Shown here piece after piece: positions 4,172 to 21,709 of a DNA stretch of 64,000 nucleotides. Source of the stretch: Spirochaetales bacterium. Lineage in GTDB: Bacteria; Spirochaetota; Spirochaetia; JABEVK01. Within the stretch, counting starts at the first letter, position 1; every line of letters begins with the position of its first letter. The notes beneath the pieces are model-generated. The model saw only the letters and a program-made list of their open reading frames with translations. It was not told the origin of the DNA and ran no database searches. Made by a program: the position numbers and the translations under genes. The stretch covers positions 32,001 through 96,000 of the forward strand of contig JBAXAI010000011.1 in the NCBI GenBank assembly GCA_037142615.1, in the 5' to 3' direction.

Positions 4172-4186
4172 GGACTTCTCCATCGT

Positions 4187-4218
4187 AAGAATATAATATA
4201 TATCCTATATAGGAGAAA
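4187..4218. promoter_or_regulatory. Divergent MFS/rhodanese control region with palindrome TCCTATATAGGA
   Basis: A 32 bp AT-rich block identical to 11055-11086 although the flanks have diverged; perfect 12 bp palindrome at 4203-4214. Confidence 0.7.
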
Positions 4219-4220
4219 TG

Positions 4221-4607: not shown

Positions 4608-4621
4608 ACTGGCCTTTGGCC

Positions 4622-6565
4622 CTACGGGTACGTCGTGACGTCGCTGGCCGACAGCGCAGTTACCCCCAGCGCCGAGGCTTCGGCGTCGAGCTGAGCCTGG
4701 GCAAGCCCGGTGGCCTGGCGAGCAAGGGCGGTGGCCGCCAAGTCACCGAGCGAGGCATCGACGGTCGCGAGCAGCGTGGCGGTGGCGGTGTCGGGCAAGG
4801 CAAACCCCGGGGGAATCGCTGCCGTGGTGCTGACGACGTACGAAGCCGTGCTGCTTCGGGTCTTGGTCGAGGCGTCCCAGGCCCAGAAGGTCTTGTTGTG
4901 CAAGGCGTTCGACACTTCCAGGTCGCCGAGCCACGGAGCAAACCCCACATCGGTCGTCCGCAACGACGTGCCCGTCTGCGGTTTCTCGAGCCAGTACTGG
5001 AAAGTCGATACCGTCGAGCTCGAGCCGCTGGGACCAGTCACCGTCTCGGTACCCTTCTCCTGCTGGCGAATCACGTAGTTAAGGCTGGTGAGCGCCGCCG
5101 AGAGGCGGAGTGTCTTCAGCGGGAACACGCTGTGCTGAAAGTAGGTGCCGCTGTCGCCGGTGTAGCCCGAGCTGGCCGCCGCGCTGTTGGTAAAGTCCAG
5201 GCTGTAGGTGTAGTCGGTGTAGCCCGAACCGGCGTTGTAGTTGCTGCCGTCGGATTCCGAACTGAAGTACACCCGGTCGCCTTGTGCCCAGGGTGAAGCG
5301 GTGCGGTATACCACGATCCACGGCACGAGATGGGAGTTGCCCGACGAGAAGAGCGTTGTCCACGGGTCGGCGCTCGAGGCGCGGTAGAGCAACTGGGTAA
5401 CCGTGCGAGCCCCGGCCGTACTCCCGGACGTACTCCAGCTCTCGGACGCGCGGAGCTGGAACGTGTCCGCAGGCGATATCGAGTAGTCCTTGAGGTTGAG
5501 AAACTTCTGGTTGGCACTGACGCCGTCGTCGAGCTTGTCGAGAAAGCCGAACTCGCTGCCACGCGCACTCGAGGCGATCTTTTCGCGCAGCAGCTCACCG
5601 GTGCCGTCGTACACTTCTGACCGGTACTGCGTCAGGTCGGTGTTGCCATCGGTCCACGAGCCCTTGGCCAGCACGCCGCCCTGAGCGCCGTCGCCCCAGG
5701 CCGCATTGAACGAGTCGGCGGTGACCTGCACGTACGAGGTTCCGCTCGAACCCATTGTCACTTTTTGGTACTGGCCCGAAGTCTGGTTGGCGACGCTGTT
5801 GCTGTTGGTGACAGGGTCGAACACCACCGTTTGGGTACCGGTGGAGGCGTCGTACAGGCCCCGGAGCGAAACCGTGAATACCGTGCCGCTGGGGTAAGTG
5901 TTCCCGTTGCCGTCGTCGGCCGAAGTCGTGAGCGTGCGGGTACCAAGGAAGGCCACCTTGGCAACCAAGCTAGGCGGTGTGTTGGCCGAGGTGAGCACCA
6001 AATGCAGGTAGTAGTCGTAGGTATCGGCGGCGGCGGCAGCGCTCGAATCGGGCAACCGGCAGTGGCCGTCGCCGCTGAAGTGCCATTTGATGGCGAGCTG
6101 ATCGCCGTCACTCGTGATCTTGGTAACTACCAGCTTGCCGGCGCCGAACTTTTTCGGGACGCCAAGGATGGCGGCCTGGTCCTCGGTGACGGTAACATCC
6201 CCCAGGCTCACGGTCGAGTCGTAGGTCATCTCGGTGAGGCCAGCCATCCCTTGCTGGAACGCCAACAAGATGTTCGACAGCACGCTCTCGGCGAGTTCCT
6301 TCTGGAGCCGGACGTAACCCTCGGAGCGCACTCCGGGCAACGCGGTGGGGTCGAGCGTCGACACGTCGCCGACGGCCCGCAGGGCGGATTTCGTCCAGGC
6401 GGTGGTACCGTCACGCAGGCTGACAGGTAACAGCGCCTGGCCGACGGGGATCGAATTGATGGCCGCCGTCAACGTTGAAAGGGCCGTCGAGTTGCCTCCC
6501 AACGAGCAGGAACTCAGGGCCAGAGCGAGGCCAAAGAACAGGGTAAGGGTCTTGGAAAACTGCAT
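4622..6565 (-). CDS. Large hypothetical lipoprotein, copy A
   Basis: 647 aa ORF, lipobox LALSSC, Ser/Thr/Gly-rich; paralogue at 11479-12895. Confidence 0.82.
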   Translation of the reverse strand: MQFSKTLTLFFGLALALSSCSLGGNSTALSTLTAAINSIPVGQALLPVSLRDGTTAWTKSALRAVGDVSTLDPTALPGVRSEGYVRLQKELAESVLSNILLAFQQGMAGLTEMTYDSTVSLGDVTVTEDQAAILGVPKKFGAGKLVVTKITSDGDQLAIKWHFSGDGHCRLPDSSAAAAADTYDYYLHLVLTSANTPPSLVAKVAFLGTRTLTTSADDGNGNTYPSGTVFTVSLRGLYDASTGTQTVVFDPVTNSNSVANQTSGQYQKVTMGSSGTSYVQVTADSFNAAWGDGAQGGVLAKGSWTDGNTDLTQYRSEVYDGTGELLREKIASSARGSEFGFLDKLDDGVSANQKFLNLKDYSISPADTFQLRASESWSTSGSTAGARTVTQLLYRASSADPWTTLFSSGNSHLVPWIVVYRTASPWAQGDRVYFSSESDGSNYNAGSGYTDYTYSLDFTNSAAASSGYTGDSGTYFQHSVFPLKTLRLSAALTSLNYVIRQQEKGTETVTGPSGSSSTVSTFQYWLEKPQTGTSLRTTDVGFAPWLGDLEVSNALHNKTFWAWDASTKTRSSTASYVVSTTAAIPPGFALPDTATATLLATVDASLGDLAATALARQATGLAQAQLDAEASALGVTALSASDVTTYP

Positions 6566-6601
6566 AGTTTGCTCCTTACCCTCAAGGCTAAAATCGCAAT
6601 G

Positions 6602-7897
6602 TCACAGTTCCGTCGCATCGGGTTCCAAAGTTGGTCGCCGAAGCGTGAACTCAATGACCGTGCCTCGCCCCACTTCGCTCTGCAGAATCAACTCACCGCC
6701 GTGAGCCTTCACCAGGACCCGGACAATCCGCAGACCCAATCCGCTGTGATGGTCTTCGGGGTTCCGGGCCAAGTCGGCACGGTAAAAGGCTTCTCCCAAA
6801 AAAGGCAGGTGCTCGGCGGCGATGCCGCGTCCGGTGTCAGCCACCCCAAGGGTCACCACACTCCCGACCTCGAGGGTGACAGACACCTTGGCGCCCGTCC
6901 CGGCGTGCGAGATCGCGTTCGAGAGCAGATTCTCGAAGACTTGGGCCAAACGATCGGGGTCGGCCAGGACGAGCACCGGCGGACCCCCGGGAACCGGCCG
7001 CAAGTCGATCCCGGCCTTGAGGGCCGGCTCCGCGTAGGCCGCCCGGCACGAGACCGCCAGTTCCCTCGCGTCGACGGTTTGTAGCGTCAGCGGAAGTTCA
7101 TGCAGATCGAGCCGGGCCAGCTCGAGCATGTCGGTGACCAGGCGAAGCAGGCGTTCGGAAGTCGCCACGATGGAGCGCAGGGCCCTCGAACGGCGCACCG
7201 GATCGTCGGCCAAACCGTCCTGCAGGGCCCCCGTCATTGTCCTCAAGGTAGAAAGCGGGGTGCGGAACTCGTGCGCAACGTCGGCGAGAAACTGCCGCCG
7301 GGTTTGAGTCTCTCTTTCCAGGTCGCCAATCTGCTTCGAAACGCGGTCGCCCAGGAAGGTCAACGTGCGTCCGAGTTCGGCAAACTCGCCGGCGCCCTGA
7401 ATCTGGAGGTCGGGCCGAAAGTTCCCCTCGGTCATCGAGTGCGCCGCCTTCATCAACTTGGCCAGAGGCCGCGTGAACAGCAGGCTTGCCCAAATACCAA
7501 AAAGGAGGGCGATCACCAGGGCCATCACCGCCGACAGCGCCAAGTTCTTCGACTGCACCGCGATCTGCTCCGCCGAGAGGGGTTGAGGACCGTCGCGGGT
7601 GGCGGTGTCGAGGGCAGGCACGGTCGCGGTCAATGTGGATTCCCCGGGCAGCGACTTGTCGGGAGCGGGCAACCGGGCGGGATAGCCCATGAAGAACTCG
7701 GCAAGGCCGAACATTGGCTCGGCGAGTGGACGGGTGTACAACTCGGGGTGTTCGACCATCTGAGCGCGGTACGACATCAGCTGCAGGTAGGTCAAAAAGT
7801 GTTCTACACCAGCGCTCACCACCCAAGTCGAGACGATGGCAAGAACCAGCGCCGTCACCACTTGGGTGCGCACATCAATTTTGGGGACGAAACGCAT
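6602..7897 (-). CDS. HAMP sensor histidine kinase, copy A
   Basis: Two TM helices, HAMP, DVAHEFRTPL H-box, NLLSNA, DTGRGI, GLGL. Confidence 0.95.
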   Translation of the reverse strand: MRFVPKIDVRTQVVTALVLAIVSTWVVSAGVEHFLTYLQLMSYRAQMVEHPELYTRPLAEPMFGLAEFFMGYPARLPAPDKSLPGESTLTATVPALDTATRDGPQPLSAEQIAVQSKNLALSAVMALVIALLFGIWASLLFTRPLAKLMKAAHSMTEGNFRPDLQIQGAGEFAELGRTLTFLGDRVSKQIGDLERETQTRRQFLADVAHEFRTPLSTLRTMTGALQDGLADDPVRRSRALRSIVATSERLLRLVTDMLELARLDLHELPLTLQTVDARELAVSCRAAYAEPALKAGIDLRPVPGGPPVLVLADPDRLAQVFENLLSNAISHAGTGAKVSVTLEVGSVVTLGVADTGRGIAAEHLPFLGEAFYRADLARNPEDHHSGLGLRIVRVLVKAHGGELILQSEVGRGTVIEFTLRRPTLEPDATEL

Positions 7898-8567
7898 ACC
7901 CTACCCCCCGAATGGTCACAATAGGAAAGTTCGCCAGGCCTGCCATCTCGAGCTTCTCACGCAGCCGGTAGACGAGGTTGTCGACCTGCCGGGAACCCAC
8001 GTGGTAGGTCTCGCCATCACCCCACGCCTGGTCGATCAGCACCTGGCGGGTATGGACCCGCTGCGGCGCCTTCACCAGGGTCACCAACACGTCGAACTCA
8101 AGGTTGGTCAGGACCACGTCTTTGCCCAACACGAGCACCCGATGTTCGCCCACCCAGATCTCGAGCGTCGACCAGCGGTAGGTCGCTTGCGCTAAAGGCA
8201 CCTGCGACGAGCGACGGAGCAGCGCCTTGATCCTCGAAACCACCTCGGCGGCCGAAAAAGGTTTGGTGACGTAGTCGTCGGCGCCTTTGTCGAGCGCCCT
8301 GACCTTGTCGATTTCCCCGTCCTTCGCCGACAGCATGAGGATGGGTACCTGGGAACGCCGACGAAGCTTTTCGCAGACGGTCACGCCATCGACCAAGGGC
8401 ATCATGATATCGAGAATGACGAGGGCGGGCTGCTCGGCGTCGAACCGGCGCAGCGCTTCGGCGCCGTCGGCGGCCAGCAGAACCTCGAAGCCAGCGGCCT
8501 CGAGGTACCAGCTCAGGCCCTCCGCAAGGTCGGTGTTGTCGTCAGCGACAAGGATGCGTTGGGACAA
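7875..8567 (-). CDS. OmpR/PhoB family response regulator, copy A
   Basis: ILVADD, LDIMMP, GADDYVTKPF, C-terminal TIRGVGY; TTG start after AGGAGG. Confidence 0.95.
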   Translation of the reverse strand: MSQRILVADDNTDLAEGLSWYLEAAGFEVLLAADGAEALRRFDAEQPALVILDIMMPLVDGVTVCEKLRRRSQVPILMLSAKDGEIDKVRALDKGADDYVTKPFSAAEVVSRIKALLRRSSQVPLAQATYRWSTLEIWVGEHRVLVLGKDVVLTNLEFDVLVTLVKAPQRVHTRQVLIDQAWGDGETYHVGSRQVDNLVYRLREKLEMAGLANFPIVTIRGVGYAFRPQN

Positions 8568-8587
8568 GGCTTTCCTCCTGTCGGGGC

Positions 8588-9139
8588 TCAGGGCCGCTTT
8601 TGAGAGAATACCGACTCGGGTCGGGTGTACACAACGCTCAGGCTCGCCTCGGCGAGAACACGGCCCCTCATAGCGTCGAGCAGCACCTGTCGCGTCACCC
8701 GCGAAGAGGGAACCGCCGGTTCGATCGTCGACGAAAGGGCGTACAGCGTCAGCACGTACGTCTTGGGACCAGGGCCCTTCGACATCGGAGGAGCGTACGA
8801 GGGAAGATCATTTTCGTTGTTCTTCCCCCACTCGCCAAGGTCTTTTTGGCCAGACGCCAAGCCCGTGGCGGAGGCAGGGAGGTTGTACAGATTCCAGTAC
8901 TCTTTGATGAGCCCCTGAGGATCGACGTGGTGCATGATGAGCGCCAGCGACTTCGTTCCCGAGGGAACGCCTGACCAGCGGAGCGGCGGCGATGAGCCGG
9001 AGCCGTCGCCGGTGAACTCAGCCGGGAGAGCGCCACCGTCGGAAACCACGGGACTTGAAAGCTGGAACGGCGACTGGGCCGACAGCGCGAGCGAAGGCAG
9101 GAGCAAGAGCAAGAGCGCAGTGACGCGAGGAAGTGTCAT
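8588..9139 (-). CDS. YbhB/YbcL (PEBP, Raf kinase inhibitor-like) exported protein
   Basis: Signal peptide, SPPLRWSGVPSGTKSLALIM, YAPP..GP..YVLTLYAL. Confidence 0.88.
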   Translation of the reverse strand: MTLPRVTALLLLLLPSLALSAQSPFQLSSPVVSDGGALPAEFTGDGSGSSPPLRWSGVPSGTKSLALIMHHVDPQGLIKEYWNLYNLPASATGLASGQKDLGEWGKNNENDLPSYAPPMSKGPGPKTYVLTLYALSSTIEPAVPSSRVTRQVLLDAMRGRVLAEASLSVVYTRPESVFSQKRP

Positions 9140-9155
9140 GAAACCCTCCGTCACC

Positions 9156-9210
9156 AAGCTACCACGCCTGTGTCGCACGGCCATCGGAGTTGTGTCGCAC
9201 GTTGGTCGCA
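9156..9210 (-). promoter_or_regulatory. Extended -10 plus four 11-bp-period repeats (OmpR/PhoB-type boxes), copy A
   Basis: Plus-strand TGTCGCA/CATCGGA/TGTCGCA/GGTCGCA at 9171, 9182, 9193, 9204; minus-strand TGgTAGCTT; same layout at 14312-14366. Confidence 0.7.
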
Positions 9211-9217
9211 GGCCCGC

Positions 9218-9622
9218 CTAGCTGAGGTCGGTCTCCCAGGATTCGGCAAGGGGCACCATCGCCCGCCGCCCCGAAATGATGGGATACTGCCCCAGGTTCT
9301 GGCTGCGGAACACCAACACCGCCAAGCCCAATCCAATGATGACTCCTGCCACGGTGAACCAGGTTCCGACGAGCAGGCCGACCAGCGCCAGCACGCCCGG
9401 CAAGACCAAAAACAGGCTGCCGGCGAGCATCATACGTCCCAGTCCGTCGGAAATATCGACCGCTTCGCCTGGCTGAAGGTCCAGATGGTAGGGATTGCTG
9501 ACCTCCATCCGCACTGACATCACCGAGCAACAAGCCGCACCGCCTCCGGGAGGAGTGTCCTCCCCTACCGACACGAGCACTTTTTCCACTCCGGGTTCGA
9601 TGACGCAGGCTTCTCGATTCAT
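9218..9622 (-). CDS. RseC/MucC-like (SoxR reducing system) membrane protein
   Basis: N-terminal beta domain with Cys (AACCS), LQPGEAVDI, then LFLVLP and two TM helices. Confidence 0.6.
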   Translation of the reverse strand: MNREACVIEPGVEKVLVSVGEDTPPGGGAACCSVMSVRMEVSNPYHLDLQPGEAVDISDGLGRMMLAGSLFLVLPGVLALVGLLVGTWFTVAGVIIGLGLAVLVFRSQNLGQYPIISGRRAMVPLAESWETDLS

Positions 9623-9650
9623 AGCACTTCCTTCTCGAGGAACAGGGCGA

Positions 9651-11039
9651 CTAGATGAACAGGGTCGCGCGGCTCGAGTCAGCGGCTTCGAGCATCGTGG
9701 CCACACCGCCGGATTCGACGCCGTCCACCAGTTCTTCCATTGTGACGCCCATGACGTCCATGCTCATGTTGCAGGCCACGAGACGCACGCCACTCTGAAT
9801 GGCACTGTCGAGCATTTCCTGCAGACTGTCAATCTTGAGGCTCTTCATGCGGCCCTTCATCATCCAGCTGCCCATGCCCACCATATGGAGTTTCGACAGC
9901 GCGAGCTTGTGAAGGCTGCTTGGCATCATCAGGCCGAACATGAGCCCGAGGAAGTCCTTCTTGGCCAACCCCATGAGGGACAGACCTCCGACGACAGCAA
10001 ACGGCGACCACCCCGGACCCACGAATGCCAAAACCAGCAACCCCCCTGCGCCGACGAACAAACCCATGGTCGAGAGTTTCACCGAACCCCAGCGGTCGGA
10101 AAGTTTACCGCTGAGGGGTGACACCAGCGCCATCGTGATGGGAAACGCCATCATCGCCAGGCCCGTGACCGCTGGGCTCCAGCCCTGCACCACCTGGAAG
10201 TAGAACGGGACCAGCACGGTGGGCGTGTAGAGCGCCAAGAAGGCGACCAGCGAAAGGATCCACGGCGACGAAAACTTCGGGTTCGCAAAAAGCTCCAGGC
10301 GGAGAATCGGGTGCTTGGCACGACGCTCCCACAGCAAAAAGGCCCCCAAGAGCGCGGCGGCCAACAGCTCGAACGCCCAACCCGAAGCCAGACCCAAACC
10401 AAACGCGACGATCGCCGTGGCGAGGAGCGCAGCGCCCAACCAGTCCAGGGCGAACTTCGTGTGGGCCACTTTGGCGTCGTGGGGGATGTTGAGCGCCGAA
10501 GCCAGCCAACCGCCGGCCGCAACCGCCGCCGAAAGGTAGAACACGCTGCGCCAACCGGCCGCGCCAATCAGAAGGCCGCCCAGCGCTGGTCCCACGATGC
10601 TCCCCAGGGCTCCCACGGTGGTGAGCAAACCCAGATTGCGTCCGCGCTGCGACGCCGGGTGATGTTCGGTAGCCAGGGCCATCCCGTTGGCAATGATCAT
10701 GGCGCCGCCCAAACCCTGAAGGATGCGCGAAACCACGAGCACCGGCAAATTGGGCGCCCACGTGCTCAACAGGGAAAAAACGGACAGCACCAAGAAGCCG
10801 AGGTTGAAGATCTTTTTGCGGCCGATTTGGTCGGCGAGGCTGCCGAGCAGGGGCAAGAGCGCCGAGATCGACAGCAGGTACACCGAGGCGACCCATTGGA
10901 TGCCGCCCGGCGTGGTGTGAAACTCGGCGGCCATCGAGGGAAGGCCCACGTTGACAATGCCGGCGTCGAGCATCGACAGAAAGGGCCCAAACATGATGGT
11001 GGGCAGAATCCAGCGGTTGACAGCTTTCTCTTCAGGCAT
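9651..11039 (-). CDS. Chimeric ORF: truncated DHA2 MFS (copy B) fused in frame to the C-terminal part of a DsrE/DrsE_2-like domain
   Basis: Matches MFS copy A up to GGLSLMG (about 9969), then switches to KKDFLGLMFGLMMP...LSKLHMVGMG...LVACNMSMDVMG...GGVATML...TLFI. Confidence 0.85.
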   Translation of the reverse strand: MPEEKAVNRWILPTIMFGPFLSMLDAGIVNVGLPSMAAEFHTTPGGIQWVASVYLLSISALLPLLGSLADQIGRKKIFNLGFLVLSVFSLLSTWAPNLPVLVVSRILQGLGGAMIIANGMALATEHHPASQRGRNLGLLTTVGALGSIVGPALGGLLIGAAGWRSVFYLSAAVAAGGWLASALNIPHDAKVAHTKFALDWLGAALLATAIVAFGLGLASGWAFELLAAALLGAFLLWERRAKHPILRLELFANPKFSSPWILSLVAFLALYTPTVLVPFYFQVVQGWSPAVTGLAMMAFPITMALVSPLSGKLSDRWGSVKLSTMGLFVGAGGLLVLAFVGPGWSPFAVVGGLSLMGLAKKDFLGLMFGLMMPSSLHKLALSKLHMVGMGSWMMKGRMKSLKIDSLQEMLDSAIQSGVRLVACNMSMDVMGVTMEELVDGVESGGVATMLEAADSSRATLFI

Positions 11040-11088
11040 GGACTTCTCCTTGGCAAGAATATAATATATATCCTATATAGGAGAAACA

Positions 11089-11466
11089 ATGAAGTACTTG
11101 CCCCTGCTTGTCCTGTTTCTGTTGCCGCTGGGTCTCATTGCCCAGGCGAAGATCGACGAACCGGCGCTCAAGGCCCTGCTGGCGAAGGACAAATCCGCCC
11201 TCGTCCTTGATGTGCGCACGGCCGAAGAGTACGCCGCTGGCCACCTCGAAAAGGCTCTTCTGCTCCCCTTTGACGCCATCGACGCCAAGACTGCGGCCCA
11301 GTTCATTCCCAAGAAGACCACCAAAGTGGTGCTGTACTGCCATTCCGGACGGCGCAGCGGTCTGGCAGCCCAGACCCTGAAGGATCTGGGCTACACCAAC
11401 GTGCTCGACTTTGGTGCCCTGTCCAACTGGAAAGGAAAACTGGCGACAGGGGCACCGCCAAAGTAG
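11089..11466 (+). CDS. Exported rhodanese, copy B (intact)
   Basis: Signal peptide, LDVRT, YCHSGRRS; collinear with copy A. Confidence 0.92.
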   Translation: MKYLPLLVLFLLPLGLIAQAKIDEPALKALLAKDKSALVLDVRTAEEYAAGHLEKALLLPFDAIDAKTAAQFIPKKTTKVVLYCHSGRRSGLAAQTLKDLGYTNVLDFGALSNWKGKLATGAPPK

Positions 11467-11478
11467 AGCACACGACCG

Positions 11479-12895
11479 TTAGGGGTACGAAGTCAGTTCT
11501 GCGGCCGCGAGAGTTCCGAGCGCCGTTTCGACGGTGGAAAGCTGCGTTGCCGTCGCAGTATCGGGCAACGCGAAGCCGGGGGGGAGGTCGGCTGTGGTGC
11601 TCACCACGTACGAGGCTACACCGCTGCGGGTCTTTGTGGTGGAGTCCCACACCCAGAAGGTCTTGTTGTGCAGGGCATTTGACACTTCGAGGTCACCAAG
11701 CCAAGGAGCAAAGCTCAGCGGCGTGGTGCGCATGGTCGTGCCGGTCTGGGGCTTTTCGAGCCAGAACTGGTAGGTCGGCACCGACGTCGTCGAACCGTCG
11801 AGAGCCGTGACGGTTTCGGAGGCCTGTTCCTGCTGCCGGATCGCGTAGTTCAGCGCACTGAGGGTGCTGTCGAGCCTGAGGGTCTTGAGCGGGAACACCG
11901 AATGCTGGTAGTAGGTACCGCTGTCGCCCGTGTAGCCCGAAGCGGCCGCAGCGCTGTTGGTGAAGTCGAGACTGTAGGTGTAGTCGGTGTATCCGGTTCC
12001 GTCAGCCTTGCAGTTGCTGCCGTCGGACTCGGAGGTGAAGTACACGCGGTCGCCCACGGCCCAGGGTGAAGCGGTGCGGAAGACGACGATCCAAAGCACA
12101 AGTTCGTAGGCCCGGAGCTGGAAGGAGTCGGGCGGCGTGGTGGTATACAGCGACGGGTGGTCGTTGAGGTTGAGGAACTTTTGGTGGGCGCTCACGCCGT
12201 CGTCGAGCTTGTCGAGAAAGCCGAACTCGCTGCCCTTGGCCAGCACGCCACCCTGGTTGGCATCGCCCCAGGCCACGTTGAAGGTATCGGCCGATGCGAG
12301 TACGAACGAAGTTTCGCCCGAAGCCGTGGTCACCTTTTGGTACTGGCCGGTGGTCTGATTGGCAATGCTCTTGTCGTTGGTGACAGGGTCGAACACCACG
12401 GTCTGGCTGCCCGTCGTGGCGTCGTAGAGCCCGCGGAGCGAGAGCGTGAACACGGTTCCGACCGGATAAGTGTTGCCGTTACCGTCATCGCCGGCGACGG
12501 TAAGCGTTCGGGTTCCATAGAAGCTCACCTGAGCCACGAGGCTGGCCGGCGTGTTGGCCGACTTCAGAAGCAGGTGCAGGTAGTAGTTGTAGGTATCGGC
12601 CACGGCAGCGGCGCTCGAGTCGGGCAGGCGACAGTTGCCATCACCGGTGAAGTGCCACTTGATGTCGATCTGGTCGTAGTTGAGGGTGGTCAAGCCCGCC
12701 ATGCCCTGCTGAAACGCGGTCAGGATGTTGGAAAGCACGCTTTCGGCGAGCTCCTTTTGCATGCGGACGTAGCCTTCCGAGCGCACGCCGGGCAACGTGG
12801 CAGGATCGAGCGTCGAGACGTCGCCCGCCCAACGAACAGGAACCGAGTGCCAAGGTCAGCCCCAGAATCAAGGTAAGTCCCACGGATAACTTCAT
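11479..12895 (-). pseudogene. Lipoprotein copy B, frameshifted and internally deleted
   Basis: The lipobox (LALGSC) ORF from 12895 is out of frame with the body because of a deletion of about 125 bp at 12825; four further in-frame deletions relative to copy A. Confidence 0.85.
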
Positions 12896-12931
12896 TTATT
12901 ACTCCTTACCGATGACTCTAGCGAGGGATTG

Positions 12932-13814
12932 TCACAGTTCGGTGTAATCGGGTTCCAAAGTTGGTCGTGGCAGGGTGAACTCGATGGTCGTCCCGCGGCC
13001 TTCCTCGCTTTGCAGAATGAGCTCTCCGCCATGGGCCTGCACAAGCACGCGCACAATGCGGAGGCCGAGGCCGCTGTGGTGGTCGTCAGGGGTTCTCACG
13101 GCATCGGCGCGGTAGAAGGCCTCGCCCAGAAACGGCAGGTGTTGCGACGGAATGCCTCGTCCGGTATCGGCCACCGCCAGGGTCACCTGGGCTCCCACAG
13201 AGAACGCGAACGAGACCTTGGCTCCCCGCCCGGCGTGAGCAACGGCGTTCGATAGAAGGTTCTCCAAGATCTGGGCCAACCGGTCGGGGTCGGCCAGAAC
13301 GAACACCGGAGGGCCGGACGGTACGGGCAACAGTTCAATCTCAGCCGTCAGAGCCTGTTCGACGTAGACGGCTCGGCACCAGACCGCCAGTTCGCGGGCA
13401 TCGACCGTCTGGATGGCGAGCGGAACTCGTGCGCCACGTCAGCCAGAAACTGGCGGCGGGTCTGAGTTTCGCGCTCGAGCTCGCCAAGCTGCTGGGCGAC
13501 GCGATCACCACCGCCATCACAGCCGAAAGGGCGAGGTTCTTCGACTGCACGGCGATCTGTTCCTGCGAAAGCGGCTGGGGCCCCTCGCGCGAAGCGGTGT
13601 CGAGGGGGGGCGTGGTCGGCGTAACGGCGACCGGGGTCACAAGATCGGGCGCAGGCAGACGGGCCGGATACCCCATGAAGAACTCGGCCACCCCAAACAT
13701 GGGCTCGGCCATCGCCCGGCTGTAAAGTTCTGGATGGGCGGTCATCTCAGCACGGTACGACATGAGCTGACGGTAGGTGAGGTAGTGTTCCACACCGGCG
13801 CTGAGCACCCACGT
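12932..13814 (-). pseudogene. Histidine kinase copy B remnant
   Basis: HATPase part intact; start, HAMP and most of HisKA removed by deletions at about 13807, 13501 and 13420. Confidence 0.88.
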
Positions 13815-14294
13815 GGTAGGTCTCACCGTCACCCCACACCTGGTCGATCACCACCTGCCGGGTGTGAACGCGCTGGGGCGACTTGATCAAAGCGATTTCC
13901 AGCTGTAATTGGCCTGCACCAGCGGCACCTGCGGCGAGCGGCGCAGCAGGGCCCGGATGCGCGACACCACCTCGGCCGCCGAAAAAGGTTTGGTGACGTA
14001 ATCGTCGGCGCCTTTGTCGAGGGCACGGACCTTGTCGATTTCGCCATCGCGTGCCGACAACATGAGAATGGGAACCTGGGAACGTTTGCGCAGCCGCTCG
14101 CAAACCGTCACACCGTCGACCAAGGGCATCATGATGTCCAGAATCACGAGCGCGGGCTGGTCGGCCTCGAACCGGCGGAGCGCCTCGGCACCGTCGGCGG
14201 CGAGCAGCACTTCGAACCCTGCGGCTTCCAAATACCAGCTAAGGCCTTCGGCGAGGTCGGTGTTGTCATCAGCGACAAGGATGCGCTGGGTCAT
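13807..14294 (-). pseudogene. Response regulator copy B remnant
   Basis: REC domain nearly identical to copy A; DNA-binding domain broken by deletions at about 13896 and 13807 (early stop at 13887). Confidence 0.88.
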
Positions 14295-14311
14295 GCGGCT
14301 CCCCCCCTGTC

Positions 14312-14366
14312 AAACTAACACGGAGGTGTCGCATGTGCATCGGAGTTTTGTCGCAGCTTTGTCACT
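14312..14366 (-). promoter_or_regulatory. Extended -10 plus 11-bp-period repeats, copy B
   Basis: TGTCGCA/CATCGGA/TGTCGCA/TGTCACT at 14327, 14338, 14349, 14360; minus-strand TGtTAGTTT at the same spacing as copy A. Confidence 0.7.
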
Positions 14367-14390
14367 GAGCCTGATCGCCCAGGGTCCTGG

Positions 14391-14858
14391 CTAGCTGTGA
14401 CTCGACCCCTCGGCCACGAACCGTTCGTACTGCCCGAGCTCAAAGGCCTGCTGTGAGATCAGGCCGTCTTTCATCGTCAGCACGGCCTTGACGATGTCGC
14501 CGATCGACACGATACCGACGATTTTGCCGTTTTGTGTCACGGGAAGGTGGCGGAGGCGCCGTTCGGTCATCAGGTTCATGCAGTCCGAGAGTGAAGTCTT
14601 GGTTTCCACGTTGAACATTTCGGTCGACATCACTTCCCTGACGGTGGTGTTGTCGCAGTCTCGTCCCTTGAAGACGATTTTGCGCACCACATCACGCTCA
14701 GAAAAAAGGCCGCACACCTTGCCCGAGGCGTCGATGACCAGGAGGGCGCCGACGTTGCGCTCAACCATTTTTTCGAGCCCGCGGAACAGCGACACCTCGG
14801 GATCAATGCTCAGAACCTCGCTTCCTTTGGTGGCCAGAATGTCTTTGACAGTTTCCAT
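14391..14858 (-). CDS. CBS domain pair protein
   Basis: NVGALLV..GLFSERD, RLRHLPV...GIVSIGDIVK. Confidence 0.93.
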   Translation of the reverse strand: METVKDILATKGSEVLSIDPEVSLFRGLEKMVERNVGALLVIDASGKVCGLFSERDVVRKIVFKGRDCDNTTVREVMSTEMFNVETKTSLSDCMNLMTERRLRHLPVTQNGKIVGIVSIGDIVKAVLTMKDGLISQQAFELGQYERFVAEGSSHS

Positions 14859-14947
14859 AATCGCTCGTCCTCCTACCTGAGTTTAGGCTAGGCCCGCAGG
14901 TCCGAAACTGTCAACAAAGAAAACTTTACCCCCATCAACTATTTCTC

Positions 14948-14983
14948 TTGACAAATCAATCTTACAGTTCAACAATCGTTGAA
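14948..14983 (+). promoter_or_regulatory. Sigma70-type promoter with an overlapping inverted repeat, upstream of the mrp-mbx operon
   Basis: TTGACA (14948) - 17 bp - AACAAT; TTCAAC-N4-GTTGAA at 14968-14983; AGGAGG before ATG 15025. Confidence 0.6.
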
Positions 14984-15024
14984 GTAATGAATTTCGTTGA
15001 TCATCCTTATGGAAAGGAGGCTTC

Positions 15025-15522
15025 ATGAAGTCCCTTTGGAGTCGTCTGGTCGCTGGTGCGGCCGTGATGCTGCTGTGGATCATGTTGACAAGTCCCGCCG
15101 GCGTTCAGGAGCTTGGCACCGCCGTGGTGCTGGGAATCCTGGCCGCAATTGTTCCGCTGCCGGGCAGGCAGGTGTGGGGTCAGATCCGCTTTATGCCCAA
15201 ACGCGTGGGGTACGCCTTCGTGTATTTCTTCGTCTTCTCGTGGGCGCTGCTCAAGAGCACGCTCGACGTCGCCTACCGCGTCGTGGCCCCCAGCCTGCCG
15301 ATCAATCCGGGGTTCGTCACGGTCAAAACCCGCCTCAAGAGCCCGCTGGGGCGCATGTTCCTGGCCAACTCGATCACGCTCACCCCGGGCACGATCACCG
15401 TCGATATCGACGGCGAAACGCTGGTGATCCATTGGATTTACCGGGGTACCGACGACATGGAAGTCGCCACCGCCGAGATCGTCGGAACCTTTGAAAAGTA
15501 CCTGGAGGTGATCTTTGACTGA
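15025..15522 (+). CDS. mnhE: Na+/H+ antiporter subunit E (MbxA-like)
   Basis: INPGFV, LANSITLTPGTITVD, IHWI. Confidence 0.95.
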   Translation: MKSLWSRLVAGAAVMLLWIMLTSPAGVQELGTAVVLGILAAIVPLPGRQVWGQIRFMPKRVGYAFVYFFVFSWALLKSTLDVAYRVVAPSLPINPGFVTVKTRLKSPLGRMFLANSITLTPGTITVDIDGETLVIHWIYRGTDDMEVATAEIVGTFEKYLEVIFD

Positions 15523-15775
15523 CCTCATCCTTTCGATCGCCGGGGGCATCACTCTGCTCGCAATGGCCCTCACCATGGTGCGTTTTGTCGTTGGAAAAGG
15601 CTTCGTGAACCGCGTGGTGGCGCTCGACGTGCTCACCATCATGGCCGTGTCGGTGATCGTGATGCTGTCGTGGCTGCTCGGTCGCGTGTTGTACGTCGAT
15701 GTGGCCCTCGTCTATGGCGTGCTGAGTTTTCTCGGGGTCGTGGCCATCGCCCGTTACCTCGAAGGGGGCCTGTGA
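15515..15775 (+). CDS. mnhF: Na+/H+ antiporter subunit F (MbxB-like)
   Basis: RVVALDVL, YVDVALVYGVLSFLGVVAIARYL. Confidence 0.93.
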   Translation: MTDLILSIAGGITLLAMALTMVRFVVGKGFVNRVVALDVLTIMAVSVIVMLSWLLGRVLYVDVALVYGVLSFLGVVAIARYLEGGL

Positions 15776-16128
15776 TGGATCTTTTTGGCGCCTTCCTTGT
15801 TTTGGCGGGTTCGCTGTTCTTTTTGCTCGCGAGCGTGGGGCTGCTGCGCATGCCCGACGTGTACAACCGCATGCAGGCCGGCACCAAGGCGACCACCCTG
15901 GGTTCGGTGCTGTTCCTTTCGGGCTTCGCCGTGCTGATGCCGTCGGTGTGGCCGAAAATCGTCGTGCTCATCGTGTTCCTGTTTGTCACAAACCCGCTGT
16001 CTTCGCACGCTCTGGCCCGGGCAGCCCGCAAGCGGGGTCTGGTGGCCGAGTTGGGTCCCGACAAAAAAGCGGTGCCTTCGAACGACGAGCTCATGAACTC
16101 TGAAAGCGCAGAAGGAGACGACGCATGA
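15775..16128 (+). CDS. mnhG: Na+/H+ antiporter subunit G (MbxC-like)
   Basis: GLLRMPDVYNRMQAGTKATTLG, TNPLSSHALARA. Confidence 0.93.
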   Translation: MDLFGAFLVLAGSLFFLLASVGLLRMPDVYNRMQAGTKATTLGSVLFLSGFAVLMPSVWPKIVVLIVFLFVTNPLSSHALARAARKRGLVAELGPDKKAVPSNDELMNSESAEGDDA

Positions 16129-16388
16129 TCCTCGCTCTTGTCATCGTATTCGGCCTGATCATGGTGGGGGGTGCCGTGGCGGCGCTCTACACCAAAGACA
16201 TGGTCAGCGCCATCGTCGCCTCGGGCATCGTTTCGTTGCTCGCGAGCGTGCTCTACCTCGTGTACGGCGCCCCCGATGTGGCCATGACCGAAGCCGCCAT
16301 CGGCTCGGCGCTTACCACGGTCGTCTTTCTGTACGCCTGGAACCGCATCGTCAAGCAACGCCAGAAGGACAAGGAGGACCACAAATGA
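16125..16388 (+). CDS. DUF4040 / MbxD-like antiporter subunit
   Basis: APDVAMTEAAIG motif. Confidence 0.9.
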   Translation: MILALVIVFGLIMVGGAVAALYTKDMVSAIVASGIVSLLASVLYLVYGAPDVAMTEAAIGSALTTVVFLYAWNRIVKQRQKDKEDHK

Positions 16389-17098
16389 TCAAGCGACTTC
16401 TGCTGATCGCCGTGTTCGCCGGCGTGGTCCTGAGCTTTTTGCCGCTGACGAGCCTTTTGCAGACCCGCACCGGAGTAACGTCCTTGGCGCAGCAGTATCT
16501 GAACCGCGCGCCGACCGACTACAACATCCCCAACATCGTTACCGCCATCGTCGTGAGCTACCGCGGCCTCGATACGCTGGGTGAGGTGACCGTGCTGTTC
16601 GCTGCCGCCGTGGGCGTCAGCCTGGCGCTGGGCTTCCGACGCAAAGCGCGGCCTGGCAAGGACGAACCCGTTCACGCCGAACCGACCAAAGTGCCCGCCT
16701 CCGAAATCTTGCAGACTGGCGCGGGCCTGTTGCTGCCGCTGATTCTGGCCTTTGGCGTGTACATCTTTTTGCACGGGCACCTCACTCCGGGTGGTGGCTT
16801 TCAAGGTGGCGTCGTGATCGCCTCGGGCCTGCTGCTGGCCCTTTTGGCCGGAACGTTCGCCGATGTGCCGCACGGACTGCTTCAGGTGCTCGAAATGCTC
16901 TCGGGCGCATCGTACGTGGCCATCGGCGCCCTCGGCCTGTGGTTGGGAGCCGGCTTCCTCGACCCGCGCTTTTTGCCCGCCGGTGAGTTTGGCCAGGTGT
17001 ACAGCTCGGGGGCCATCCCGCTGATCTACTCGTTGGTGGGCATCAAGGTGGGTTCCGAGCTCGCCACCGTCATCAGCGACCTCAGGAGGAACTCATGA
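16385..17098 (+). CDS. mnhB: Na+/H+ antiporter subunit B (fused MbxE/F-like)
   Basis: NIVTAIVVSYRGLDTLGE, HGHLTPGGGFQGG. Confidence 0.93.
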   Translation: MIKRLLLIAVFAGVVLSFLPLTSLLQTRTGVTSLAQQYLNRAPTDYNIPNIVTAIVVSYRGLDTLGEVTVLFAAAVGVSLALGFRRKARPGKDEPVHAEPTKVPASEILQTGAGLLLPLILAFGVYIFLHGHLTPGGGFQGGVVIASGLLLALLAGTFADVPHGLLQVLEMLSGASYVAIGALGLWLGAGFLDPRFLPAGEFGQVYSSGAIPLIYSLVGIKVGSELATVISDLRRNS

Positions 17099-17454
17099 TC
17101 GGTCCCGCCCTGTTTGTCTTGGCCTTCGTCATCATGGCCATCGGCGTCTGGGGACTCCTCGTCCGCCGCAACATTTTCCGCATGATCATCGGCTTTTCGC
17201 TGCTCGACACCGGGGTTCACATTTTCATGGTGGCTGCCGGCTACCGTGAGGGGGGCACCGCTCCCATCGTCGACGCCCAGGCCACCGCTGCGCAAGTGGC
17301 CGCCAACGGTGTCGATCCCGTGCCGTCGTCGCTGGTGCTCACGGCCATCGTCATCGGCTTGGCCGTCACCGCGCTGATGCTGAGCTACGCGGTGCGTCTG
17401 CACGCAAGGTCAAAAAGCCTCATGGTCGACAAGAACAAGGAGCTGAAATGGTAA
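17095..17454 (+). CDS. mnhC: Na+/H+ antiporter subunit C (MbxG-like)
   Basis: DPVPSSLVLTAIVIG. Confidence 0.93.
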   Translation: MIGPALFVLAFVIMAIGVWGLLVRRNIFRMIIGFSLLDTGVHIFMVAAGYREGGTAPIVDAQATAAQVAANGVDPVPSSLVLTAIVIGLAVTALMLSYAVRLHARSKSLMVDKNKELKW

Positions 17455-20400
17455 ATCCCCTCCTGTTGATCGCTCTGCCGCTGGGCTGGGCTTTTCTGTA
17501 TCCGCTGATCGCCAAGACGGGCAAATGGGCCTCGGGTCTGTTGTCGGTGGGTGTGATGGTGGTAATGACGGCCAGTTCGGCGGTTTCGCTGGTGGCGCTG
17601 CTGCTCGGCGCTGCCCCGGTGATGATCCAGACCGGTGGCTTTGCGGCCCCGCTCACCATCAACCTGCTGCTCGACACCGAGTCGGCGTGGCTGGTCACCA
17701 TTCTTGGGCTGGCGGGCGCCGGTACGCTGGCGGGCCAGGTGTTCCGCACGCAGTTCGCCTGGAACACCAAGCAAGTCATCCTCTTCTTTGTGCTGATGCT
17801 GGGCGCCTACGGTCTGGTGCTCACCCGCGACCTGTTCAACGTGTTCGTGTTCCTCGAAATCAGCGGCATCGCCGTGTTTGGCCTTTTGAGCACTTCGCGC
17901 GACGGTCGCGTGTTCGAAGCCGGCTTCAAGTACATGGTAGCCGGGGGGCTGAGCTCCACCTTCTTTCTGCTGGGAGTCACCATCCTGTACCTGGCCGGCG
18001 GTACGCTCAACATTGACGGCATGGCCGCCGAAGCCGCCAAGGGAAGCTTCCAAAGCCCGCTTTCGCTGCTGGGGCTGGCCTCGTTGCTGGTTGCCCTGCT
18101 GATCGAGGCAAAGCCTGTGCTCGCCAACGGTTGGGCCATGGACGCCTACGAAGCGGCCGACCCGGGCATCGCCGCGCTCATGTCGGGCGTCGCCGCCACT
18201 GCCGTCGTGGCCGTGCTTGCCAAGATTCTGCCGCTGTACAACGCCATCGGGCCCACCATCGCGGTGGCCTTGATGGTGCTCGGGCTCATCGGCTTCGTGC
18301 TGGGCAACCTGCAGGCCCTCACCCAAAAAAGCCTTCGCCGCACCTTGGGCTACTCGTCGTCGGCGCAAGTGGGGCTCATCGTCGCGCTGTTCGGACTGTT
18401 GAGCACGCCGCTGGCCAACGTGGTCGGCACGCTTCCCATCATTTTTGTGCTGCTGATGAGCCATGCCCTGGCCAAGAGCGGCTTGTTTTGGCTGGCTGAT
18501 CACGTCGGTGACGCCACCGGGACCAAGGATTCGCCCACCCGCTCGCTGCGAAACCGGCCTGTGCTGCTGGTCCTCGCGGCGATCTTCGTGCTGGCTCTCA
18601 TCGGCCTGCCACCCTTCCCGGCTTTCGGTGCCAAGTGGAGCCTGATGGTCAACCTTGCCAATCAGGGCCTGTGGCTGCCCATGGGCCTCATTTTGGTCGG
18701 CAGCCTGCTCGAGGCCGCCTACCTGCTGCGCTGGTTCACTTCGGTGAGCCGAAAAGACAGCGATCCGGGCACGGTCGACGGCCCCCTCCTGCCCGAAGAT
18801 TGGCAGCCCGACCAGTCGGCCCTCGACGTGGCGCCGGTTTCGGCTAACGCCGTGGCCGCGGAGCGCGAAAGCGACCCACCCAGCCGCGCCAACCTGTTGA
18901 TGGCCTTTGTGCCCGCGTTGGCGCTGGTGGGCGGCGGTTTGTTCCTGCTGGGCCAAATGGGCGTTTCACTGCTGGTGTTGCTGCCGGTGGGAGTGCTCGG
19001 AGCCATCGCCCTGCTCGATGTGGCGCGCTTGCCGGTCAAGGTGCAGGTTCCGGTGGCGATCGCCGGCATCGGCGCCCTGGCGTGGTGGGTGCTGCCCGGC
19101 CTGGACTTGCTGCGCCAGATCTTCGGCCTGATGTTCCTCGCCGGTTCGGCCCTGCAAATGGTGGCCCTGATGAACCGCAGGGGCCGGCAACCGGGTGTCG
19201 TCGCTCTGGTGGCGACGCTGGTCGCCGCCCTGACCGGCCTGCTGGTGGCCACAACCAGCCTCGAGTTCTTCGTGTCATGGGAACTCATGACCCTCGCGTC
19301 GTTCTTTTTGGTTCTGCGAGGCCGCCGTGCCAGCGCGGGAGCCTTGTCGTTCATCCTGTTTTCGCTGGGCGGCGCCTTTCTCATCCTGTTTGGCCTGACC
19401 ATCTTGCCCGGGTTGCCGAGCCTGAGCCAGGCTGGAGCGATGCTGATGCAAACCCGTATGGGTGGTCCCCTCGGTCTTGTGGCCGGGCTCGCGCTGGGGC
19501 TGGGCCTGCTCATCAAGGCAGGCGGTTTGGGGCTTCACGTTTGGCTGCCCTCAACCTACGCCGAGGCTGACGACGACATTTCGCCGCTGCTGAGCTCGGT
19601 GCTCAGCAAGGCCGGCGTGCTCGGCCTCTTCTTGGCGGCCGGCTTTTTCGCCCAACCGCTGCTGGCCAACCTCGGTTACCTGCCGGGCGTGCTCGGTGGG
19701 TCCAAGCTCGAAGCCGCGACGCTGGCCGACATTCTGGGCTGGGTCGGGGTGGCCACGGCGGTGGCGGGAGCGCTTTTGGCGCTGTTCCAAGAAGACATCA
19801 AGTACTCGCTGGCCTATTCCTCGATGAGCCAACTGGGCTACATCGTGCTGAGTTTTGCCATGATGACGCACCTGGGCTGGGTCAGCTCGCTGTACTTGTC
19901 GGTGACGCACCTGTTTATCAAGGGGATGATCTTTTTGGCGGTGGCCGGCATCATCCAGCGCACCGGCACACGCTACATGTACCAGATGGGGGGCCTGATC
20001 AAGCGCATGCCGATCAGCTTTGTGTCGGTGCTCATCGGCATTATTGCCCTGTCGGGTGTGCCTCCCCTGGCGGGCTTCGGCGGCAAATGGCTGATGTACA
20101 CCGCCCTGCTCGAAAAAGGCTGGTACCTGCAAGCGGGCCTCGCGATGTTCTCGTCGGCCGTGGCCTTCCTGTATCTGTTCCGCCTCATCCATTCGATGTT
20201 CCTGGGGCAACTCAAAACCCGGCACCGCGAGGTGAAAGAAGCCTCGTTCTGGACCCTGCTGCCGCAGGTGGCGTTCATGCTGCTCATTGTGGGCTTCTCG
20301 ATGTTCCCCACCTACCTCATCCAACCGCTGCAAGCCGCCGTGGAACCCTGGTTCACCTCGACCGTGCATTGGGAAGGGTACACGGTGATTTCGAGCCTCG

Positions 20401-20765
20401 GGTACTGGAACGGCAACTGGGTGATGTACGCCACCATGGGCGTGTTCCTGATTCCGCTGGCATGGCTGATGCTGGCCAAGGGCCGCACCTACTGGGTGAA
20501 GCAGTTCAACATCGTGTTCGCGGCCGAGCGCCCGTACAAGCCCGAAACCACGCATTACGCGTACAACTTCTACGGCCATTACCAAAAGGCTCTCGGCTTT
20601 TTGGCCAAGCCCTTCGTGCGTAATTTCTGGACGCGCGTCGGTAGTGTTGTCCACACGCTTTCGGACGGTTTGCGGCGCTGGAACACCGGCAACGCCCAAG
20701 GCTACGCCCTTCAGGTTTTCGCTTACCTCATCCTCGTCTACCTCGTCTTGAAGGGAGGGTTCTGA
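17448..20765 (+). CDS. Proton-conducting antiporter-like subunit with two fused MrpD/NuoL-M-N modules (MbxH-H'-like)
   Basis: 1105 aa. DLFNVFVFLE...YSSSAQVG...GLPPF and a second SWELMT...YSSMSQLG...GVPPL module, joined by a hydrophilic linker. Confidence 0.9.
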   Translation: MVNPLLLIALPLGWAFLYPLIAKTGKWASGLLSVGVMVVMTASSAVSLVALLLGAAPVMIQTGGFAAPLTINLLLDTESAWLVTILGLAGAGTLAGQVFRTQFAWNTKQVILFFVLMLGAYGLVLTRDLFNVFVFLEISGIAVFGLLSTSRDGRVFEAGFKYMVAGGLSSTFFLLGVTILYLAGGTLNIDGMAAEAAKGSFQSPLSLLGLASLLVALLIEAKPVLANGWAMDAYEAADPGIAALMSGVAATAVVAVLAKILPLYNAIGPTIAVALMVLGLIGFVLGNLQALTQKSLRRTLGYSSSAQVGLIVALFGLLSTPLANVVGTLPIIFVLLMSHALAKSGLFWLADHVGDATGTKDSPTRSLRNRPVLLVLAAIFVLALIGLPPFPAFGAKWSLMVNLANQGLWLPMGLILVGSLLEAAYLLRWFTSVSRKDSDPGTVDGPLLPEDWQPDQSALDVAPVSANAVAAERESDPPSRANLLMAFVPALALVGGGLFLLGQMGVSLLVLLPVGVLGAIALLDVARLPVKVQVPVAIAGIGALAWWVLPGLDLLRQIFGLMFLAGSALQMVALMNRRGRQPGVVALVATLVAALTGLLVATTSLEFFVSWELMTLASFFLVLRGRRASAGALSFILFSLGGAFLILFGLTILPGLPSLSQAGAMLMQTRMGGPLGLVAGLALGLGLLIKAGGLGLHVWLPSTYAEADDDISPLLSSVLSKAGVLGLFLAAGFFAQPLLANLGYLPGVLGGSKLEAATLADILGWVGVATAVAGALLALFQEDIKYSLAYSSMSQLGYIVLSFAMMTHLGWVSSLYLSVTHLFIKGMIFLAVAGIIQRTGTRYMYQMGGLIKRMPISFVSVLIGIIALSGVPPLAGFGGKWLMYTALLEKGWYLQAGLAMFSSAVAFLYLFRLIHSMFLGQLKTRHREVKEASFWTLLPQVAFMLLIVGFSMFPTYLIQPLQAAVEPWFTSTVHWEGYTVISSLGYWNGNWVMYATMGVFLIPLAWLMLAKGRTYWVKQFNIVFAAERPYKPETTHYAYNFYGHYQKALGFLAKPFVRNFWTRVGSVVHTLSDGLRRWNTGNAQGYALQVFAYLILVYLVLKGGF

Positions 20766-20767
20766 TC

Positions 20768-21697: not shown

Positions 21698-21709
21698 AGG
21701 GAGTACCCG

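Follow-up and report, generated by a model that had tools for sequence, protein, structure and literature searches.

Ten deletions of 85 to 573 nt, without point damage, in a broken second copy of a two-component and lipoprotein operon of a Spirochaetales bacterium

The stretch of DNA analysed here, hereafter the window, comprises 64,000 nucleotides (nt) from a Spirochaetales bacterium (assembly GCA_037142615.1, contig JBAXAI010000011.1, positions 32,001 to 96,000 of the forward strand; the contig is called C11 or the source contig below). It contains two homologous copies of an operon unit, of which copy A is intact and copy B is broken and 1.7 kb shorter, with the order of genes unchanged. 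When positions 10001-16000 were compared with the window by blastn and by global alignment, the matching blocks of the two copies were each found to be 71-90% identical. The features of both copies are as follows.

Copy A, 3102-9209, reverse strand: operon unit, intact, homologous to copy B
MFS_A, 2825-4183, reverse strand: intact; Pfam MFS_1 8e-62; homology between A and B begins at 3102
Rhodanese_A, 4218-4607, forward strand: intact, Pfam Rhodanese; convergent to the operon and divergent from MFS_A
lipo_A, 4622-6565, reverse strand: lipobox protein of 647 amino acids (aa); reference for five of the deletions
HK_A, 6602-7897, reverse strand: intact HAMP-HisKA-HATPase histidine kinase (Pfam)
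RR_A, 7875-8567, reverse strand: intact OmpR-type response regulator; Pfam Response_reg and Trans_reg_C
PEBP_A, gene at 8588-9184, reverse strand: Pfam PBP 1e-20; spans 8588-9209 with the operon promoter/operator
Copy B, 9967-14365, reverse strand: operon unit, broken, genes ordered as in copy A
MFS_B-DsrE_2-like fusion, 9651-11039, reverse strand: Pfam MFS_1 and DrsE_2, joined in frame at about 9962
Rhodanese_B, 11089-11466, forward strand: intact; Pfam Rhodanese 1e-16
lipo_B, 11479-12895, reverse strand: remnant of a gene like that of the 647-aa lipoprotein
HK_B fragments and a regulator island, 12932-13886, reverse strand: only HATPase_c detected (Pfam)
RR_B, 13887-14294, reverse strand: 135-aa receiver-only remnant; Pfam Response_reg 4e-30, no Trans_reg_C
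Promoter/operator remnant and first 10 PEBP codons of copy B, 14312-14365, reverse strand: 76% identical to A 9156-9209

Copy B has lost ten segments. Nine of these, of 85-174 nt relative to copy A, had been claimed in the original prediction, which was made from the sequence by hand alignment, and all nine were reproduced by alignment here. In the global alignment, copy B shows gaps of 111, 102, 117, 125, 172, 166, 174, and 85 nt at the positions first proposed, and the remaining gap, near the C-terminus of the lipoprotein, amounts to 29 codons (87 nt) in the protein alignment, while the nucleotide alignment splits it into 67+20+10. A tenth deletion had been missed; it removes the equivalent of A 8583-9155 (573 nt, or PEBP codons 11-198 and the spacer), and beside it copy B still has the promoter and PEBP codons 1-10. 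The ten deletions range from 85 to 573 nt, and about 1.7 kb has been lost from an operon of 4.5 kb. Listed from the promoter end, they are:

573 nt, junction 14311/14312: PEBP body and spacer
85 nt, junction 13889/13890: RR_B, end of the receiver-only remnant
174 nt, junction 13802/13803: removes the regulator end and the kinase start
166 nt, junction 13500/13501: removes HAMP
172 nt, junction 13413/13414: removes the rest of HisKA
125 nt, junction 12824/12825: frameshifting; severs the lipo_B signal peptide (12825-12895)
117 nt, junction 12672/12673: in frame, lipo_B
102 nt, junction 12231/12232: in frame, lipo_B
111 nt, junction 12102/12103: in frame, lipo_B
87 nt, junction about 11498/11499: in frame, lipo_B

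Six of the ten deletions are multiples of three and four shift the frame. All four that fall within the 438-codon open frame of lipo_B, which follows the signal-peptide cut-off, are multiples of three, against a naive expectation of 1/81. In the HK_B region, two islands of 87 nt each are retained (13803-13889 and 13414-13500). The stop codon of RR_B sits at the junction of the 85-nt deletion, and up to that point the remnant shares 90% aa identity with residues 1-135 of RR_A.

Three outgroup lipoproteins (648-669 aa) possess every lipoprotein segment that is absent from copy B, and 9 of the 12 library matches to the lipoprotein at E<=1e-10 measure 595-658 aa. Pfam searches recovered complete domain sets in copy A (HAMP/HisKA/HATPase for the kinase; receiver and winged helix-turn-helix, wHTH, for the regulator), and copy B lacks parts of them. 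Because the outgroup proteins and the Pfam domains carry these segments, they are losses in B and not gains in A. The small insertions and deletions (indels) of copy B (+3, +12, and net -6) all preserve the frame; polarised by the outgroups, the +12 proves to be a loss in A. As a description, therefore, "size-restricted" is apt, since all ten deletions measure at least 85 nt and no small indel shifts the frame. The adjacent rhodanese gene and the body of the MFS gene (88% aa identity between MFS_A and the MFS part of copy B) had been said to lack such gaps, and both are indeed gap-poor.

Copy B is now without HAMP and the greater part of HisKA; the kinase has lost its start codon, the regulator part of its wHTH, and the lipoprotein its connection to the signal peptide, and the body of the PEBP gene is gone as well. 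With respect to the usual marks of a pseudogene, an intact homologue exists, copy B is both truncated and frameshifted, and essential elements are gone; judged by its sequence, copy B is a dead operon copy. Among 15 relatives, the lipoprotein segments that were deleted are no less conserved than those retained (0.286 vs 0.315, P=0.17). The AlphaFold2 (AF2) model of lipo_A (predicted local distance difference test score, pLDDT, of 82.6) is beta-rich, and the deletions remove confidently modelled core strands, a picture in which the lipo_B remnant is probably not alive. An earlier AF2 model built from 5 sequences (pLDDT 43.6) was unusable. Contigs of the metatranscriptome library X11 lie at 11087-11819 (rhodanese_B), 12463-12624 (the lipo_B remnant), and 14242-14500 (the 5' end of RR_B). 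The dead unit may still be transcribed, the alternative being carry-over of DNA into X11.

The 901 retained codons of copy B all read in the frame of copy A with 0 internal stops, their aa identity to A is 76-90% (62-90% in single blocks), and the differences lie mostly at third positions, which bears out the earlier observation of mostly synonymous changes and no substitution-derived stops. Ratios of non-synonymous to synonymous divergence (dN/dS) between A and B were 0.14 for the lipoprotein, 0.10 for the kinase, and 0.085 for the regulator, with dS of about 0.9-1.4, and those of the intact neighbours were similar (0.07 for the MFS gene and 0.115 for the rhodanese gene). When polarised by the outgroups, private aa changes number 22 in B and 28 in A, so there is no excess or acceleration specific to B. 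Because dN/dS is low and private changes are not raised, copy B worked as an operon for nearly all of the divergence between A and B, as had been proposed. The further proposal that it was then cut down quickly did not survive, since the lack of stops only limits the neutral period to less than 0.034-0.07 substitutions/site. Among random changes in the retained codons, 3.2-3.3% yield a stop, and the bound leaves room for about 90 hidden substitutions. Ten deletions within 0.034-0.07 substitutions/site is not an abnormal ratio of deletions to substitutions.

To examine the junctions outside the source contig, we used metagenome runs from three other studies (X2, X3, and X6), in which a different assembler had been used. 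In X2, a single contig of 15,040 nt spans 10498-14500 and bridges 10/10 junctions with 0 gaps and 4 single-nucleotide polymorphisms (SNPs); in X3, four contigs together bridge 10/10 junctions; and in X6, at least 5/10 are bridged among the contigs listed. The deletions are common to the populations of three studies, sampled 2018-2025, at about 99.9% identity. Lake time series containing copy B come from 11 studies. Likewise, lipo_B with the same four in-frame gaps recurs as four near-identical proteins (P0004, P0006, P0007, and P0008) on six contigs. The possibility that the junctions arose in assembly or amplification was thus answered by contigs of independent assemblies, which confirm the deletions: they are real, derived in copy B, shared across populations, and unaccompanied by point damage. 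Two of the 4 SNPs that distinguish the source contig from those of X2/X3 change an amino acid, as does a Q-to-P difference by which P0008 departs from the remaining lipo_B alleles; with 3/5 non-synonymous, these recent differences are too few to judge relaxed selection by.

A DNA search of 40 relatives retrieved no orthologue of copy B, only short regulator or rhodanese matches, and a peptide pattern of copy B had no match across 185,579 species genomes. The sole return of a metagenome scan for copy B was one 2,397-nt contig identical to the window, and no intact lipoprotein or kinase of the B lineage was present in the protein collections searched. With no intact B-lineage orthologue found, the exact ancestral breakpoints were not available.

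The placement of copy A beside copy B is a separate matter. At 9651-11039, the first 357 residues of MFS_B continue in frame into a DsrE_2-like protein, of which the C-terminal two thirds are present, and the fusion protein has an exact match on the source contig only. Left of 9962, the X2 contig leaves the window sequence and the MFS gene continues, with 26/30 likeness to the C-terminus of the MFS protein of copy A; no B-type MFS C-terminus was found elsewhere in the genome. The fusion at 9962 is either a strain-specific rearrangement or a mis-join. The region of copy A (2800-9837) has essentially no contig cover at a likeness of at least 90% in X2, X3, and X6, which does not by itself prove absence; its only clean piece is a 234-nt contig of depth 2 in X2, compared with a depth of 8.5 for copy B. 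Physical linkage of A and B was seen on C11 only. For a protein identical to Rhodanese_A (P0020) and for the common lipo_B allele alike, the longest contig listed is one of 78,852 nt. A and B may share a chromosome in most cells or in one strain only, or they may have been joined by mis-assembly. In the same-genus genome G001, synteny is kept for the far-left flank only (DUF2202 and an Fe-S protein), which is uninformative on the two sides of 9962. We also considered a duplicated block at the right end of C11 as a test for bin mixing, but its genes are accessory genes of defence type and not core genes, and it was uninformative as well. This defence-type island is present in two copies that are 70-82% identical (C11:106000-115417 and C7:65000-78000) and encodes a UvrD-like helicase, DUF4276 with an AAA_21 ATPase, and a 937-aa N6/N4 methylase. 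The deletion analysis is unaffected by the doubt over linkage because A serves as a reference only, but the doubt weakens the idea that the redundancy of A caused the decay of B.

Our best reading of copy B, to which we give about an even chance of being right, is the ordinary loss of an unused operon by RecA-independent template switching at short repeats. The operon (promoter, PEBP, OmpR-type regulator, HAMP histidine kinase, and 647-aa lipoprotein) would have been under purifying selection for a long time before becoming dispensable, and the unneeded copy B would then have been eroded by deletions of 85-573 nt only. These would arise when replication slips, switching template between direct repeats that are short and often imperfect, with no dedicated nuclease needed, and in four cases two jumps would bracket a copied island of 87-152 nt. 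The scars would stop at the operon borders because selection continued to act on the neighbouring rhodanese, MFS transporter, and CBS genes. What we infer is the slippage or template-switch mechanism, the pairing of deletions into complex events, and any part that selection for DNA loss may have had in narrowing the range of sizes.

Microhomology was scored on copy A, which at 78% identity is a proxy about 22% diverged from the ancestor of B. At the nine junctions, A contains exact in-register runs of 2, 3, 3, 3, 2, 6, 3, 5, and 2 nt, and two junctions have imperfect repeats (7/9 and 7/8). The frame bias of the deletions requires no selection: short direct repeats lying 80-180 nt from each other have matching codon phase in 46-59% of cases (k=3-6; DNA rich in G+C at third codon positions), and because short repeats are codon-phased, 6/10 in-frame deletions are expected. 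An in-frame excess from k-mers recurring at multiples of three is likewise argued for Burkholderia pseudogenes in the excerpt of PMC6054270 at hand. With A again as the proxy, the G+C content was the same in the deleted-segment comparison (0.637 vs 0.636), and no common sequence motif was visible at the nine junctions.

As for the agents first proposed, nuclease cutting followed by Ku-type joining, Cas, or Argonaute is unsupported. In the genome (G000; 96.7% complete, 76 contigs), we found 0 matches to Ku (PF02735), for which a Bacillus subtilis control was positive, and 0 matches each to Cas1 (PF01867) and Piwi (PF02171); CRISPR spacers were not searched. Slippage or template jumping, also among the original candidates, is the best remaining one, although unproven. 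The genome does contain three reverse-transcriptase genes of 340-404 aa (C67:3169-3750, C55:3763-4344, and C3:51140-51811), none inside the window. All three fall below every NCBIfam cut-off with a best likeness to group II intron reverse transcriptases, and they may be of the diversity-generating type. Copy B itself is not a recent retrocopy, because dS of about 1 shows an old copy under selection.

The layout of what remains is regular. Along the operon, the retained intervals measure 420, 87, 308, 87, 589, 152, 441, 117, and 601 nt and alternate perfectly between long and short (P about 0.008, or about 0.001 when a two-fold gap between the classes is required). The long intervals are even in length (coefficient of variation 0.23, P about 0.0065), and eight of the deletions form four pairs around collinear islands of 87-152 nt that are 77-84% identical to A. 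Rather than ten independent random hits, the scars could be traces of a small number of complex events, or of some local process not yet described, recurring about every 0.8 kb along a silenced operon; alternatively, the floor of about 85 nt could mark a selection threshold for DNA loss. We put these ideas forward tentatively and regard them as doubtful. If the events were complex, each would skip about 100-170 nt, keep an island of 87-152 nt, and skip again, a bacterial parallel to serial template switching.

Several results weigh against the reading of ordinary loss by template switching. The claim that most deletions lie at microhomologies holds in that runs of 2-6 nt are present, but their excess over chance is weak, with P values against random placement of 0.139, 0.089, 0.011, 0.007, and 0.011 for search ranges of 6, 8, 10, 12, and 14 nt, respectively. 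The deleted segments, with A as the proxy, gave no signal of end-complementarity or folding energy (P=0.24 and 0.19). Long open frames for RecA, MutS, and MutL were found, so nothing points to a loss of repair like that proposed for Sodalis. Published spectra of slippage and pseudogene deletions consist mostly of small events (in the excerpted multi-taxon pseudogene set, 81/104 deletions are <=15 nt and sizes follow a power law with few above 15 nt, PMC6054270; in the part of the Sodalis report consulted, slippage deletions are 2-100 bp, PMC4948707), and here no post-inactivation event is small. The statistics on pairing and spacing are post hoc and constitute a lead, not a result. Finally, a deletion spectrum across the lineage is not shown and the pattern is confined to a single locus so far: among 104 other diverged paralogue pairs of the genome that we realigned, it was not repeated in any broken gene. 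That realignment yielded 26 gaps of at least 80 nt among about 275, in pairs that are mostly functional genes or repeat families. An indel background drawn from blastn high-scoring segment pairs was swamped by alignment noise. The one other pair with multiple gaps (C35) is a toxin-antitoxin array and not a comparable broken gene; in this module array (C35:27000-38817; PIN, BrnT/CopG), repeated spacers differ by gaps of 138-190 nt, a 25-nt tandem repeat lies near the contig end, and the whole looks like a cassette array.

Other explanations were weighed against the same evidence. Misassembly or bin chimerism, as the source of the deletions or of the A/B pairing itself, would suit a draft genome of 76 contigs in which copy A has nearly zero depth in the other studies and the 9962 junction is unique to the source contig. 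Yet the junctions recur gap-free under another assembler, all ten in two studies and half in the third, lipo_B carries identical gaps on six contigs, and doubt about the 9962 join touches the placement of A and not the existence of the deletions in B. For the deletions this explanation is already refuted, and overall we consider it very improbable. Functional remodelling, in which retained blocks still work, for example as a stand-alone receiver or a trimmed cytoplasmic lipoprotein fragment, and the trimming was tolerated or favoured, would account for a RR_B with an intact receiver and its own ribosome-binding site that ends one codon past the junction, for a 438-codon lipo_B frame that outlasts four deletions, and for the unusually even lengths of the long retained blocks. 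The kinase, however, lies in three frames without HAMP and most of HisKA, lipo_B is missing its signal peptide as well as conserved core strands, the in-frame excess can be explained by mutation, and the two recent polymorphisms of lipo_B both alter the protein. We consider functional trimming unlikely and rate it low, though above an assembly error.

The remaining explanations concern how the deletions arose or became fixed. Double-strand breaks, spontaneous or made by restriction, could have been processed by RecBCD-type resection to microhomology and Ku-independent alternative end joining, leaving scars of 85-570 nt. With Ku not found, only an alternative pathway could act, restriction-type islands are present in the genome, and the excerpt of PMC6054270 blames such joining for the 3n-biased microhomologies (1-12 nt) of Burkholderia pseudogenes, most of them without Ku/LigD. 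Ten or more breaks in 4.5 kb would nevertheless be required with no common junction motif, resection should give a broad range of sizes, and simple resection does not yield collinear islands between paired deletions; we hold this explanation to be rather improbable. Somewhat more plausible, if still doubtful as the whole account, is a filter by selection, whereby deletions of all sizes arise and a very large free-living population fixes only those removing enough expressed DNA. Small indels and nonsense mutations would be effectively neutral and as yet unfixed, and the narrow range would be the product of a supply that falls and an advantage that rises with size. Such a filter covers the absence of small indels and stops as well as the unremarkable set of repair genes; it fits ten deletions common to the populations of three studies, as after sweeps, and the retained promoter and the RNA-library contigs on B, which suggest that the unit may still be costly. 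Selection against young pseudogenes has also been published (in the portion of PMC2916853 consulted). It leaves the pairing and even spacing unexplained, however, the operon has not undergone a single 3-kb deletion, which would serve even better, the RNA contigs may be DNA carry-over, and the cost of the DNA enters the argument only qualitatively. We regard selection on size as a serious complement to template switching, which remains our best reading, and Ku-independent end joining as the weaker alternative.

An upstream block of 54 nt, present in both copies (9156-9209 and 14312-14365), contains a pair of GTGTCGCA-like direct repeats at a spacing of about 21 nt. This arrangement is typical of an OmpR-family operator, and judging by these repeats the dead copy B could perhaps bind regulator A. 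In both copies, the promoter region from which the MFS and rhodanese genes diverge contains a conserved palindrome with a TCCTATATAGGA core (4203-4219 and 11066-11082), a probable shared regulator site. Directly to the right of copy B lies a cluster for a Mrp/Mbh-type membrane complex (15025-24257) with MnhE, MrpF, MbhD/E, a large antiporter-like subunit, and NuoH/B/D-like genes; a query with the large subunit had no match in four same-genus genomes. Apart from the A/B homology, a repeat search of 2500-15000 returned only repeats of a size expected by chance, none of them a mobile element or a hairpin repeat, Rfam gave 0 matches at E<=0.1 for 2500-15500, and scores of a promoter/terminator scan were at background level.

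The lipoprotein belongs to a small family, with 20 representatives at E<=0.001 among 1.84 billion, and lipo_A has no Pfam or NCBIfam match. Foldseek searches with the lipo_A model gave TM scores of at most 0.15, and the best hit of a wide search with VIA had a Z of 7.8, which is below the noise level of the tool, with rows that were mostly membrane beta-barrels. On the strength of this model, the family appears to lack a convincing solved fold. The closest relatives of HK_A are 67-68% identical and lie on the same two contigs as the lipoprotein outgroups, and its nearest named homologues are in metagenome-assembled genomes of Armatimonadota (38-54% identity).

The shrinkage of bacterial genomes is generally ascribed to a deletion bias in which small events predominate, and pseudogenes provide the main view of it. 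Copy B is a clean natural case in this respect, with mid-sized deletions only, no point damage, a regular layout, and fixation across lakes and years. The deletion of pseudogenes through microhomology or slippage is known; what is unusual here is the absence of small indels and the paired, even layout. Should the pattern recur in the species, it would point to a distinct mutational pathway (multi-jump template switching in a repair-proficient cell) or to visible sorting of sizes by selection, and if it is confined to a single locus it is an anecdote. If the lower limit of about 85 nt is truly a threshold, copy B would offer a direct readout of selection for DNA loss in a free-living bacterium.

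With regard to known systems, copy A resembles OmpR/BaeS-type two-component operons in having genes for a receiver with wHTH and for a HAMP-HisKA-HATPase kinase next to an exported protein, and it differs in that its partner lipoprotein is of a family without a Pfam or NCBIfam model or a clear solved fold. For the deletions in copy B, a limited literature search found no report of paired mid-sized deletions in a bacterial pseudogene, which does not exclude that one exists. Serial replication slippage and microhomology-mediated break-induced replication (MMBIR), as treated in the excerpt of Hastings et al. 2009 (PMC2621351), are alike in that several microhomology switches leave collinear pieces; unlike copy B, that work concerns human copy-number variants, usually duplications and on a larger scale. 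The pseudogenes of Danneels et al. 2018 (PMC6054270), in the part available, share microhomologies at the deletion ends, a lack of Ku in most of the genomes, and an in-frame excess, but few of their power-law-distributed deletions exceed 15 nt, and copy B has none below 85 nt. In "Candidatus Sodalis pierantonius" (Clayton et al. 2016, PMC4948707), the excerpt likewise describes genes inactivated mainly by slippage deletions at direct, gapped, or imperfect repeats of G+C-rich DNA, more often than by nonsense mutations. Those deletions are of 2-100 bp and occur genome-wide in a host-restricted symbiont that has lost recombination genes, whereas the deletions of copy B are of 85-573 nt and lie at one locus of a free-living lake bacterium with RecA, MutS, and MutL intact.

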